This document shows positions 12,205-15,790 of a DNA stretch of 24,206 bases, piece after piece. The stretch is from NCBI GenBank assembly GCA_937925775.1, contig CALAMM010000141.1, positions 1 through 24,206 on the forward strand, written 5' to 3'. Position numbers and translations under genes: made by a program. Source of the DNA: an uncultured Fimbriimonadales bacterium. Lineage in GTDB: Bacteria > Armatimonadota > Fimbriimonadia > Fimbriimonadales > GBS-DC. The stretch's first letter is position 1. Each line of letters opens with the position of its first letter. The notes under the pieces were generated by a model. It ran no database searches and had not been told where the DNA came from. It saw only the letters and a program-made list of their open reading frames with translations.

Positions 12205-12654
12205 TCACTGCCCTGTGTGCCCGAACCCGCCGTCGCCGCGCGGGGTCGGGGGCAACTCGCTCGCCGGCTCCCACTCCACGCGCAACACGGGCGCAATCAC
12301 CATCTGCGCAATCCGCTCGCCGCGACGGATGGTGAACGGCTCCTGCCCCAGATTAATCAGAATCACCTGCACCTCGCCGCGATAATCGCTGTCGATGGTA
12401 CCAGGCGCGTTCACCATGCCGATGCCGTGTCGGATTGCCAGTCCGCTGCGGGGGCGCACCTGCGCCTCGTAGCCAGGCGGCAGGGCGATGCGGATGCCCG
12501 TGGGGATCAGCGTGCGCTCGCCTGGTTGTAAGGTGACTGGCTCGGAAACAGCGGCGTATAAGTCGACCCCTGCCGAGCCATCGGTCTGATAGCTCGGCAG
12601 GGGCAGATCGGTCGCATCGGGTTCCTGTGTAATCAACACGCGCAGGACGCTCAT
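12205..12654 (-). CDS. dut: dUTP diphosphatase (trimeric dUTPase)
   Basis: Motifs [27 protein letters not shown], and [14 protein letters not shown] overlap with the kinase stop. Confidence 0.98.
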
Positions 12655-14378
12655 TTTTCGACCTGCTCTTTACCCTCTTTGACAGCGGGGGGCACTTTAG
12701 GCAGGCGCACATAGAAGGTGGAGCCGACGCCCACCTCGCTCTCGACCCAGATTTGCCCGCCGTGAATCGCCTCCACGAGGTGCTTCACGAGGTACAGCCC
12801 CAAGCCTGTGCCGTACTGCTTGCGCGTGTCGGTGTTGTCGACGCGATGGAACTTCTCGAACACCTTCGTCAGGTGCTCTTTCGGGATCCCCATCCCCTGG
12901 TCGGAGACATAGAAGATGATATGGTCGGCGTCTTCCTCCCAGGCTTTGACGCGGATCTCGCCGCCGTTGGGCGAGTACTTAATCGCGTTGCTGAGCAGGT
13001 TGGTCAGAATCTGATCCACCTTGTCCTCGTCGGCGATAATCTTGGGCAGGTCTTCCGGCACATCGTGAATAATCGTGTGTTTGGTAGTAGCCTGCCGCTG
13101 AATCATCACCACTTTCTTGGAGAGGTTGTAGAAGTCCACATGCTTGTAGACAGGCTTGAGCGACTCGCCCGCCTCGATACGCGCGATGTTCAGGAGGTCG
13201 TTAATCAGGCGCGTGAGGCGATCGGTCTCCTGATCGATGATAGAGTAGAACTCGCGCCGGTCTTCTGGGGTGAAGGCGTCTTCGGAGTCCATCAACAGCG
13301 TTGAGACAAAGCCCTTGATGGCGGTGAGCGGCGTGCGCAGCTCGTGCGAGACTGTCGCCACGAACGCCGATTTCATGCGCTCCAGGTTGCGGATGTCGGT
13401 GATGTCGTTGAAAATCATCACTGTACCCATCGGCTTCTGGTCTTCGCCGCGCACGATGGCGTTCTGCACCTGATAGATATGCTCTTTGCCATCGATTTGC
13501 ACCGTGATTTCGACCAGCTCACCCTCTTTCTCTTCTTCCAGGGCGGCGCGTATCATATTGCGGATGGTTTCGTTGTTGATAATCTCCGCGTAGTTTTTGC
13601 CCAGCACACTGGGACCCAGTCCGAACACGCGTCGTGCGGCGGCGTTCATCTGGTTGATGCGCCCGTTGTGATGTACCAGAATCAGCCCTGCGCGCAGGCT
13701 CTCGATGGTGTGGACGAGTTCCTCTTTCTCTTCGAGGATTGCCTGATAAAGGCGCATGCCTGCAATCACGGCGGCGGCGTTGCGCGCCATGCGTTCGAGC
13801 AGGCGTACATCCTCGTCGATGAAGTGCCCGCCGCGCTGCTTGTTGAACGCATGCAGCACACCGATGGTCTGGCGATCGATGACGCGGTTCTCCTCATCGC
13901 GCTTCTCTAAAATCAGCGGCACGCACACGAGGTTGCGAATGTGCAACATCGCGACATGCTCTTTGCTGGTGCGCGGGTCGGTGATGGCATCATGCACGAT
14001 AATCGGTTTGCCCTCCCGGAACACCTCGCCCGAGACGCCATGCGTAGCGCGCACGCGCAGCAGGCGGATTTCGTCTTCGGTCAGTCCGTAGGCGGGCGGA
14101 TAGGCGCGCAACTCGCCCTCTTCAGGGTCGTGCAACATAAACACCACCTTTTCCGCCTGTAAAATCGCGCCGATTTGCTTCACGAGGCGTTTGAGCGTCG
14201 CCTCGTAGTTGGCAGGACTGGCGACATCGGCGGCGACCACCTCAGGCGTTTTGGCTGCGGCGGCGCCGTTGCGCGGCTGGCTCTCCAGCTCCTGAACCCG
14301 CTGGACGGCGCGCTCGTACTCCGTTTTTACCTGGTTATACTGCTTCAGCAGCTCACGATAGGCTTGCTCCCAGTTCAT
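12651..14378 (-). CDS. Cytoplasmic sensor histidine kinase (coiled coil-GAF-PAS-HisKA-HATPase)
   Basis: GAF-like segment ([17 protein letters not shown]...NLVCVPL...IGVL.AFNK), PAS-like segment, H-box [11 protein letters not shown]-box [11 protein letters not shown]1 DQGMGI, G2 GTGLGL. No transmembrane stretch seen. SD GAGGAG upstream. Confidence 0.93.
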
Positions 14379-14412
14379 GGTTCGCTCCTCGCTAAGAGTG
14401 TAAATGATAGCC

Positions 14413-14438
14413 TGTGCTATATGGCAAATTATAGCACA
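14413..14438. promoter_or_regulatory. Kinase-gene extended -10 overlapped by a 9-8-9 palindrome (candidate operator)
   Basis: Minus strand TGC-TATAAT at 14436-14428. Palindrome TGTGCTATA (14413-14421)-N8-TATAGCACA (14430-14438). Confidence 0.6.
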
Positions 14439-14453
14439 TCGAAGGTTCCCGCG

Positions 14454-14819
14454 CTATCGAGCAATTCGCTCCGGATTTAGACGGCGTTTGGGGCGAGTTG
14501 TATTGCAGTGCGCCCCGATGAGTAATTTCGACGCGCCTATCGTTCTCCATAGGCGAAGTATCACATACGACTGTCGTTGCGCCCTCAGATCCGCAATCGC
14601 CTGCAAATCCTGCTCCAAATCTGCCTCATCGTAGTGGATAGGAATATCGCGCTCGCGCAAGCGTCGCTGGAACTCGAGACGGTCAACTCCCGACCACTCG
14701 ATTGCTTGTTCCAGCGATAGCCGTTGCTGCTGGTACAGCCAGATGGCTAACTCGACTCGGAATTCCGCCTCATCGAGCTGCGCAGCGCGTAGCATTTCGT
14801 CGCTAATCACGACGCTCAT
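14454..14819 (-). CDS. UPF0175 family antitoxin-like protein with a read-through C-terminal extension (ancestral end probably 14574)
   Basis: ELAIWLYQQQRLSLEQAIEWSGVDRLEFQRRLRERDIPIHYDEADLEQDL is the typical UPF0175 pattern, normally about 80 aa. SD GGGAGGT lies within the SPFH tail, with an ATGA overlap. Confidence 0.85.
   Translation of the reverse strand: MSVVISDEMLRAAQLDEAEFRVELAIWLYQQQRLSLEQAIEWSGVDRLEFQRRLRERDIPIHYDEADLEQDLQAIADLRAQRQSYVILRLWRTIGASKLLIGAHCNTTRPKRRLNPERIAR
14467..14514. repeat. 48-bp direct repeat, copy 1 (non-genic copy of the SPFH 3' end)
   Basis: CGCTCCGGATTTAGACGGCGTTTGGGGCGAGTTGTATTGCAGTGCGCC is 45/48 identical to 14834-14881. Confidence 0.92.
14551..14577 (-). 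pseudogene. N-terminal stub of a DUF3368-type PIN toxin
   Basis: ACG ACA GTC GTA TGT GAT ACT TCG CCT reads (M)TVVCDTSP, matching the MxVVxD/NTSP start of DUF3368/PIN proteins that normally follow UPF0175. The start codon has become ACG and the homology stops after 9 codons. Confidence 0.7.
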
Positions 14820-15637
14820 TCTATACCTCCCGACGCTCTGGATTTAGACGGCGTTTGGGGCGGGTTGTATTGTAGTGCGCCGTCCATCAGCGGGCGAATC
14901 AGGTCCATCGGGATCGGGAACACCACCGTTGTATTGCGCTCGCCCGTGATCTCCGCCAGCGTCTGCAGGTAGCGCAGTTGCAGCGCAGCGGGTTGCTGGG
15001 CAATCATCTGCGCGGCTTGCACCAGCTTCTCGGCGGCTTGGTACTCACCCTCGGCGGCGATGATTTTGGCGCGCCGCTCGCGCTCGCTCTCCGCCTGACG
15101 CGCCAGCGCACGCTTCATCTCTTCGGGCAAAATCACATCGCGCACCTCCACATTCGTCACCTTCACGCCGAACGCTTCGGTCTGCTCGTCGATAATCGAC
15201 TGCAGCTGCTGATTAATCTTCTCGCGCCGCGCCAGCAGGTCGTCCAGCTCCGCCTGACCAATCACGCTGCGCAGGGTGGTCTGAGCAATCAGGCTGGCGG
15301 TCTGGATGTAGTCCGTAATCTGCACGACAGCGTCGCGCGGATCCATCACCTTGAACAGCACCACCGCGTCCACGCTTACTGACACATTATCGCTGGTAAT
15401 CGCCTCCTGACGGGGCACGTTCATAGTTACAATGCGCGTGTCCACGATGCGCGCCGTGTCGATAATCGGGATTAGGAAGATGATTCCAGGTCCTTTTACT
15501 GCCTGAAACCGTCCGAGTCGCAGCACGACGGCGCGCTCCCATTCGGGCAACACGCGCAGCGCAGCCCGCAAGACCACAATCACGAACAGAATAACCGCAA
15601 TAGCCGTTGTAGAAAACGGATTGTCAAAAAAGTTCAT
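14816..15637 (-). CDS. SPFH/band 7 (stomatin-like) membrane protein
   Basis: N-terminal TM helix, VLPEWERAVVLRLGRF, GPGIIFLIPIID, ITSDNVSV.VDAV, TLRSVIG, LL..REKIN, VKV..VEVRDV.LP, QAE.ERERRAK, and ALQLRYLQTL. SD GAGGGAG upstream. Confidence 0.95.
   Translation of the reverse strand: MNFFDNPFSTTAIAVILFVIVVLRAALRVLPEWERAVVLRLGRFQAVKGPGIIFLIPIIDTARIVDTRIVTMNVPRQEAITSDNVSVSVDAVVLFKVMDPRDAVVQITDYIQTASLIAQTTLRSVIGQAELDDLLARREKINQQLQSIIDEQTEAFGVKVTNVEVRDVILPEEMKRALARQAESERERRAKIIAAEGEYQAAEKLVQAAQMIAQQPAALQLRYLQTLAEITGERNTTVVFPIPMDLIRPLMDGALQYNPPQTPSKSRASGGIE
14834..14881. repeat. 48-bp direct repeat, copy 2 (within the SPFH 3' end, encoding GALQYNPPQTPSKSRA)
   Basis: CGCTCTGGATTTAGACGGCGTTTGGGGCGGGTTGTATTGTAGTGCGCC, 367 bp from copy 1. 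Confidence 0.92.
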
Positions 15638-15658
15638 CGTCCATCTCCCTCAGTCTAT

Positions 15659-15667
15659 AGTGTACCC
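15659..15667 (-). promoter_or_regulatory. Candidate -10 box of the SPFH gene
   Basis: GGG-TACACT, 21 nt upstream of the ATG. The same 9-mer occurs at 17935-17943. Confidence 0.5.
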
Positions 15668-15708
15668 GTTTGGGAGTAAGTCCTCCAAATGTGAAGATGT
15701 ACCGCGAT

Positions 15709-15790
15709 GAGATTCCTCGCTGCGCTCGGAATGACAAACTATTCCGCGCCCCAATACCCCTGTCATTCCAAGCCGCAGGCGAGGAATCTC
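15709..15790. repeat. REPIN-like element, second copy of the TGTCATTCC family
   Basis: GAGATTCCTCGCTGCGCTCGGAATGACA (15709-15736), then a 24-nt spacer, then TGTCATTCCAAGCCGCAGGCGAGGAATCTC (15761-15790). The left arm is 27/28 identical to 11869-11896. Confidence 0.85.

Follow-up and report, generated by a model that had tools for sequence, protein, structure and literature searches.

The window analysed here, a 24,206-nt stretch of DNA, belongs to a metagenome-assembled genome (MAG) of 1.56 Mb that is 69% complete and divided among 210 contigs. On its minus strand, genes for a DUF374 protein and a KdtA-like glycosyltransferase are followed by a gene for an SPFH/Band 7 protein, an antitoxin-like open reading frame (ORF), a GAF-PAS-HisKA-HATPase histidine kinase gene and a dUTPase gene (Table 1). 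The SPFH/Band 7 match (PF01145) scored 137.4 bits against a cut-off of 23.6. An Rfam search of positions 14200–15000 returned no match, and 5–8% of sampled words were present in the RNA runs listed.

Table 1. Features of the locus, in the order in which they are read on the minus strand (positions are those of the window)
Feature	Position	Strand	Basis or remark
DUF374 gene and KdtA-like glycosyltransferase gene		−	Head of the gene order, then SPFH
SPFH/Band 7 gene, 273 aa	14816–15637	−	PF01145, E = 6.7e-40
Upstream copy of 48-nt direct repeat, the real SPFH 3' end	14834–14881	−	Repeat comparison
AGA codon at SPFH stop position	14837–14839	−	TGA or TAA in relatives; change unique to the window
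Antitoxin-like ORF, 121 aa	14454–14819	−	ORF translation
UPF0175 antitoxin core, 81 codons	14577–14819	−	Pfam; 82–93% identity to P0001–P0004 (80–81 aa)
CGA codon replacing the relatives' antitoxin stop TGA	14574–14576	−	Alignments
5' stub of DUF3368/PIN-like toxin gene, 29 nt, ACG ACA GTC GTA TGT GAT ACT TCG CCT AT	14549–14577	−	Alignment and BLAST breakpoint
Deletion junction	14548–14549	−	BLAST breakpoints and alignment
3' toxin-gene remnant, 9 nt, GGA GAA CGA (last two codons and former stop)	14540–14548	−	Alignment
Cassette 3' spacer, common to the L002/L003 lineage	14515–14539	−	Alignment
Downstream copy of 48-nt direct repeat, SPFH-tail relic	14467–14514	−	Relic stop TGA to GGA at 14472–14470
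Read-through tail, 40 codons and TAG stop (14454–14456)	14454–14576	−	Basic, pI 12; without homologue
TGCTATAAT, extended −10 box of histidine kinase gene	14428–14436	−	Block conserved in all relatives (alignments)
GAF-PAS-HisKA-HATPase histidine kinase gene	12651–14378	−	Profile match; conserved downstream neighbour of the insertion site (synteny)
dUTPase gene		−	After the kinase gene

The first 81 codons of the antitoxin-like ORF had been assigned to UPF0175 in the first-pass annotation, and a profile search bore this out, with PF03683 (75 model positions) matching at ORF residues 5–73 with 74.9 bits against a cut-off of 27.9 (E = 4e-21). The length of the whole ORF departs from the stand-alone family size of ~80 aa (80–82 aa in 54 of 64 aligned members), and one of the closest homologues is labelled Fimbriimonadales. 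Within an alignment of 65 sequences, all eight near-invariant residues of the family (M1, D7, L28, A39, F50, R57, Y63 and D71) are kept in the window. The sole window-specific replacement at a conserved site is G37E, in a column with Gly in 38, Ala in 14 and Glu in two of 64 sequences; this change was considered as a mark of a dead antitoxin and rejected, given that Glu occupies the column in other family members. The AlphaFold2 (AF2) model of the core has a pLDDT of 93–97, and comparison with L002 gave a dN/dS of 0.06 at a dS of 0.45, a figure not assignable to the time after toxin loss. The core, with its helix-turn-helix fold and acidic C-terminal helix, therefore appears to be still intact. 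It is the one UPF0175 gene of the MAG.

[quoted passage not shown] 2009, PMC2701414; Matelska et al. 2017, PMC5499597). Relatives of the window show the gene order SPFH, UPF0175, DUF3368, kinase and dUTPase at the orthologous site. Five related lineages carry an 80–81-aa UPF0175 gene and an overlapping DUF3368 gene between the SPFH and GAF-PAS kinase genes, and the DUF3368 gene is intact, at 162–163 aa, in L003, L006, L008, L009 and L036–L041. Antitoxin and toxin genes overlap by ATGA in L003, L006 and L036–L041, and by TGATG in L008 and L009. The relatives thus hold an antitoxin gene directly upstream of an adjoining COG2405/DUF3368 toxin gene, whereas in the window the toxin gene is deleted and a 29-nt stub takes its place. 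The proposal in the first-pass annotation that the window holds a fossil UPF0175/DUF3368 module is borne out by these intact pairs at the same site, and the predicted ATGA junction is seen in them. The label of TA module is based on the gene-pair architecture and on the published predictions; on this basis, the locus is very probably a decayed UPF0175/DUF3368 (COG2886/COG2405, PIN-like) cassette of the predicted type II kind.

Loss of the toxin gene can be followed to the base. The minus strand at the junction reads GCG CAA CGA CAG TCG TAT GTG ATA CTT CGC CT; position 14576 is the C of CGA. Nucleotide alignments place a T at this column in all five related lineages and a C in the window; the T sits in CGATGAC, the ATGA overlap, in L002, L003, L030 and L036, and in GTGATGA in L007 and L008. 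In the relatives this T opens the antitoxin stop codon TGA and at the same time forms the middle of the toxin start codon ATG (14577–14575). Because the two genes overlap by ATGA, a single T-to-C substitution has abolished the toxin start and the antitoxin stop together, as the first-pass annotation had read from the window itself. Past this base another 26 nt align with the 5' end of the toxin gene. Comparison of stop codons at orthologous positions is limited by synteny with G003, which spans 12210–15790 only.

The body of the toxin gene is missing. Compared with the opening 29 nt of the toxin genes in the relatives, the 5' stub is identical at 20–22 positions; homology breaks off after CCTAT, leaving nine codons of N-terminal homology, the number given in the first-pass annotation. 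BLAST against contig C12 of G003 paired window position 14549 with 3476 and position 14548 with 3927, so that 450 nt of that contig (3477–3926), or 451 nt relative to the intact toxin gene, are deleted. No microhomology was seen in the alignment at the junction 14548|14549. The description of the remnant as a 5' stub was incomplete, as 9 nt at the 3' end of the toxin gene survive as well, and here the former stop TGA has become CGA through a T-to-C change at 14542, where only L002 and L003 are comparable. Exact-pattern scans of metagenome and genome contigs found neither the deletion junction nor the antitoxin/toxin junction elsewhere. No match to the DUF3368 profile (PF11848) was found anywhere in the 69%-complete MAG of the window; the search is effective, given that it detects the family in eight of 15 congeners. 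As a side product of the deletion, the toxin-frame stub is brought into frame with the duplicated SPFH tail in a 52-codon ORF (MENDRR..., 14392–14550, minus strand). This ORF spans the kinase promoter because the relic SPFH stop is now GGA, ends in a TAG 13 nt upstream of the ATG of the kinase gene, and is probably not translated since it has no Shine-Dalgarno sequence upstream.

The toxins of the relatives keep E38, G80-E81 and D99, residues invariant across the family. The N-terminal motif of the family reads VVSNTSP, Asn being present in 25 of 29 sequences, and Asn in place of Asp was therefore rejected as the sign of a dead PIN domain, being the family norm. The toxin start given in the first-pass annotation, VVxDTSP, needs amending to VV[SC]NTSP, with Asp occurring as a minority variant; the Asp in the stub of the window is a derived or minority state.

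To assess the reliability of the sequence, the window was compared with Logan contigs assembled from four runs, all belonging to a single study. The contigs showed no differences at depths of 4–22 and spanned 14421–14981 (two runs), 14421–14896 and 14421–14857. The contigs of all four runs cover the deletion junction and positions 14576, 14542 and 14472, and those of at least three extend to the SPFH stop codon as well. These contigs are not fully independent because they probably derive from the MAG's own source samples, and they are contigs rather than raw reads. Given the agreement of four separately assembled sets, a one-off assembly error is unlikely, and base 14576 in particular, singled out earlier as a possible sequencing error, is the same in each. 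In two of the runs (X1 and X2) a co-occurring congener, ~93% identical, was found with an empty site: its contig joins 14421–14475 to 14843–14981, skipping 367 nt, and it is about tenfold more abundant (depth 217–266 vs 22). A mixture of congeners within the MAG could in principle have produced a chimeric or erroneous deletion or stop losses, and the incompleteness and 210 contigs of the assembly, the abundant empty-site congener in the same samples, and second SPFH and kinase genes, 85–88% identical, on other contigs are all compatible with such mixing. However, the contigs of all four runs match the window without a difference across the deletion junction and the antitoxin-stop, toxin-stop and downstream-repeat changes, as do those of at least three runs across the SPFH stop, and a chimera with the abundant congener, which is different at many other positions, would be a mosaic, of which none was seen. 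An artefact of this kind is highly improbable.

With its stop removed by the T-to-C change, the antitoxin ORF gains 40 codons before it meets a TAG immediately ahead of the kinase promoter. The first-pass annotation had described these 40 residues as toxin stub and duplicated SPFH DNA, which they are, with the cassette spacer contributing as well: the tail reads through the toxin stub out of frame, then the spacer, then the duplicated SPFH tail, again out of frame. No relative carries the tail and the comparison of homologues found no homologue of it. The tail has a pI of 12 vs 4.4 for the core. Within the AF2 model the native C-terminal helix is prolonged to residue 101 with pLDDT dropping through 87, 73 and 57, and beyond this residue there is no regular secondary structure (pLDDT about 60). 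The tail is most likely a non-functional by-product. As modelled, the window protein would most likely be a still-foldable orphan antitoxin with a junk tail.

A second stop loss lies upstream. The SPFH gene ends in TGA or TAA in nearly all relatives aligned and has AGA at this position in the window; L029, from another genus, has a gap at the stop column and a longer tail. Because the stop TGA has become AGA, the SPFH protein gains seven codons (RASGGIE), making it 7–12 codons longer than those of the relatives (261–267 aa), and the new end, a TGA at 14816–14818, overlaps the antitoxin ATG. The resulting ATGA overlap (14816–14819) is the coupling of the two genes noted in the first-pass annotation, and the core is probably produced through coupling to SPFH translation. 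The alignments show that this coupling arose by the SPFH stop loss, an event separate and distinct from the decay of the toxin. In all cassette-bearing relatives, those with an intact toxin included, a gap of 12–17 nt that holds nothing but a Shine-Dalgarno sequence separates the SPFH stop from the antitoxin start. Because this same adjacency exists where the toxin is intact, the cassette stood next to SPFH from the outset. The first-pass annotation had the orphan antitoxin captured into a membrane-stress operon after toxin loss, a view at odds with the intact-toxin relatives, in which the cassette and the SPFH-tail repeat are already in place.

In the window, every stop codon in the array has lost its first base: TGA became AGA in SPFH (14839), CGA in the antitoxin (14576), CGA in the toxin (14542) and GGA in the relic SPFH tail (14472), while neighbouring genes keep TGA. 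Of ~282 sites invariant among the relatives the window changes ~10, and three of these are the T of a stop codon. The hypergeometric probability of this clustering is ~3e-5 unconditioned, ~9e-4 after discounting the change that drew attention to the locus, and ~0.03 under the most forgiving assumptions, in which the repeat copies are linked by gene conversion. The clustering exceeds what simple neutral decay would give, leaving room for some selection outside the explanation by decay. The stop losses could have come about through chance and relaxed constraint, and selection for translational coupling is likewise possible.

Four TGA codons of the relatives that appear as AGA, CGA, CGA and GGA in the window are also what would be expected if TGA were reassigned or read through in this host and the substitution of NGA for TGA reflected a change of code. 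This reading was rejected and is scarcely conceivable: TGA terminates the dUTPase, kinase, KdtA-like, DUF374 and CDGSH genes as well as the lengthened SPFH gene, long ORFs stay open under translation table 11, out-of-frame TGAs are kept in the same stretch, and TGA is the commonest stop of long ORFs genome-wide.

Breakage of the toxin gene is recurrent at this site. Within one lineage the toxin carries a 1-nt deletion in L002, L004 and L005, leaving 95 aa, and is intact in L003 and L006; in another a 2-nt insertion in L007 truncates the DUF3368 domain, with L008 and L009 intact; and L030–L035 have an independent internal deletion of ~380 nt (43 aa). Together with the internal deletion of 451 nt in the window, a single chromosomal site in five sister lineages has seen four independent routes to a broken toxin, with the antitoxin core ORF intact in all four broken-toxin lineages, the window included. 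Read from these alignments, the pattern would fit toxin loss being favoured and antitoxin loss not.

Read-through from an antitoxin into a toxin stub is not unique to the window, because a second case was found on an unrelated metagenome contig (L053, 1501–1945). The 110-aa UPF0175 ORF there (P0055), an orphan flanked by genes for threonyl-tRNA synthetase and a GHMP kinase, continues into what is left of a truncated DUF3368 gene (IVVSDTSAINNLA...). This stub is read in the frame of the antitoxin, the relative frame being that of the window, and the resulting tail SLVIRLRSTI resembles SYVILRLWRTI of the window. C-terminal extensions occur in about eight of the best 150 UPF0175 family representatives, and those of P0071, P0097, P0156 and P0163 are unexplained. 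Over-long UPF0175 proteins in databases, with odd C-terminal tails, can thus be read-through of toxin stubs.

The cassette measures ~0.75 kb and occupies the space between the SPFH stop codon and the GAF-PAS kinase promoter. A search for terminator-like sites, and for promoter-like sites particular to the cassette, found none. Duplicated SPFH DNA downstream of the antitoxin ORF had been noted in the first-pass annotation and is present as a 48-nt direct repeat with copies 94% identical. It had been taken for a novelty of the window's lineage; a repeat of 25–48 nt, however, brackets the cassette in every cassette-bearing relative. Most congeners (G002, G004, G006, G008, G009, G010, G012, G013 and G016) have empty sites, with a single copy of the repeat followed by the conserved kinase promoter TGCTATAAT; the empty-site loci compared were L012–L018, L021 and L023, and the cassette loci L002, L008, L030 and L036. 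Flanking repeats of the target 3' end together with single-copy empty sites are the features of an attL/attR-like arrangement. No recombinase or integrase was found in or adjoining the insert, which consists of the two TA genes only.

Both repeat copies of the window read CACT/CAATAC/AAACG and both copies of L002 read CATT/CAGTAC/AAACA, and the cassette junctions of the window and L002 lineages are clearly homologous. The likeness of copies within a genome could plausibly reflect gene conversion or, alternatively, independent target duplication. Within the genus the kinase-gene tree collapses to an unresolved star, with cassette lineages scattered among empty-site ones and one cassette lineage in another genus, and because of this star repeated loss and repeated gain are not separable. 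Antitoxin distances are 9% between the window and L002 and 21–22% between the window and L008 or L030, and are not mirrored by the kinase distances, which are star-like at 11–13%. As far as the alignments go, the pattern would fit repeated loss by recombination between repeats and site-specific spread equally well.

Other rearrangements were observed around the same junction. In G014 (L022; G014:C105, ~1500–1620 in gene orientation), whose kinase is the closest to that of the window at 94% identity, unrelated opposite-strand DNA takes the place of SPFH upstream of a partial repeat copy. On contig C27 of the window's own genome, other DNA adjoins a partial repeat copy upstream of a kinase gene, and in G007 and G015 other genes follow SPFH. 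The junction between the SPFH stop and the kinase promoter looks like a rearrangement hotspot. The second SPFH gene of the MAG (263 aa) lies on contig C95 (L045, 4759–5550) and the second GAF-PAS kinase gene on C27 (L046, 3807–5726); they are 85–88% identical to those of the window, not adjacent to one another, and each accompanied by part of the SPFH-tail repeat. This second set reflects either a bin drawn from two congeners or a duplication and rearrangement of the locus.

In the cassette-bearing relatives, then, the cassette stands behind the SPFH stop and before the kinase promoter, flanked by the 25–48-nt duplicate of the SPFH 3' end. In the lineage of the window the 451-nt internal deletion has stripped the toxin gene to 29 nt at its 5' and 9 nt at its 3' end, and the T-to-C change in the ATGA overlap has killed the toxin start and the antitoxin stop at once, extending the antitoxin ORF by 40 codons to the TAG ahead of the kinase promoter. 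The further loss of the SPFH stop, TGA to AGA, leaves SPFH ending on the antitoxin start codon.

Selection could also have a part in what remains, maintaining the orphan antitoxin in the role of an anti-addiction factor or of a DNA-binding regulator tied to SPFH, with the stop losses selected for coupling or for a new C-terminal helix. At sites invariant among the relatives the window changes 3 of 145 positions in the core vs 3 of 20 across junction and stub (Fisher p = 0.024), which hints, weakly, that the core stayed constrained while the toxin remnant drifted; the contrast carries little weight, as the three stub changes include the inactivating one itself and another in the variable last codon of the antitoxin. 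The low dN/dS against L002, the intact antitoxins in all four broken-toxin lineages, the non-random clustering of stop losses and the prolongation of the native C-terminal helix to residue 101 in the AF2 model agree with maintenance, as does the frequency of DUF3368 genes in congeners, up to five per genome, from which cognate toxins could arrive. However, the MAG, at 69% completeness, yielded no DUF3368 gene, the tail is present in no relative and so carries no signal of conservation, its pLDDT falls to 57–67, and a tail of pI 12 on a core of pI 4.4 could equally harm the protein. Orphan antitoxins are, moreover, common leftovers of decay (PMC7192599). Selective maintenance of this kind is unlikely. 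The leftover antitoxin is most likely either still weakly useful, in that it could neutralise a cognate toxin from another element, or heading for loss.

A more far-reaching account would treat the UPF0175–PIN pair as a promoterless cassette that inserts at the SPFH stop without a recombinase of its own, duplicating the last 8–16 SPFH codons, with selection removing the stops after the death of the toxin and thereby welding the antitoxin, with its new helical tail, to SPFH translation as a host regulator. This account is very unlikely. Integrated elements of the attL/attR-like kind do resemble the locus in that a direct repeat of the last 8–16 SPFH codons brackets the cassette, congeners have single-copy empty sites, and other DNA adjoins the same repeat in G014 and on C27. 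Unlike such elements, the 0.75-kb insert has no integrase or recombinase in or beside it and its repeat varies in length between lineages; vertical descent with loss by repeat recombination explains the pattern equally well.

The locus also resembles the predicted COG2886/COG2405 pairs. The antitoxin family, the 81-aa size and the overlap with a PIN-like gene agree with the orthologous loci, the VV[SC]NTSP motif is shared, and E38, GEAE and D99 are conserved in the toxins of the relatives. The window departs from these pairs in that its toxin is cut to 29 and 9 nt and its antitoxin lacks a stop and bears an unrelated tail of 40 aa, and the 12–17 nt between SPFH stop and antitoxin start leave no room for a promoter. 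Orphan antitoxins of degraded chromosomal TA loci are common, with a median of nine per Klebsiella strain in one survey (PMC7192599), and share with the window a toxin that is gone and an antitoxin ORF that stays in its original context; in the sister lineages, too, the toxin was inactivated independently more than once. The locus is a degraded TA locus with an orphan antitoxin, an outcome of ordinary gene decay of an already known kind, and not a new kind of system. It differs from the orphan antitoxins surveyed in that its substitution and internal deletion are both mapped to the base, and in that its antitoxin is a read-through fusion coupled to an upstream host gene by a second stop loss. 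It offers a clean, base-resolved natural case of the death of a TA module, unusually clear thanks to the intact pairs that close relatives retain at this site.
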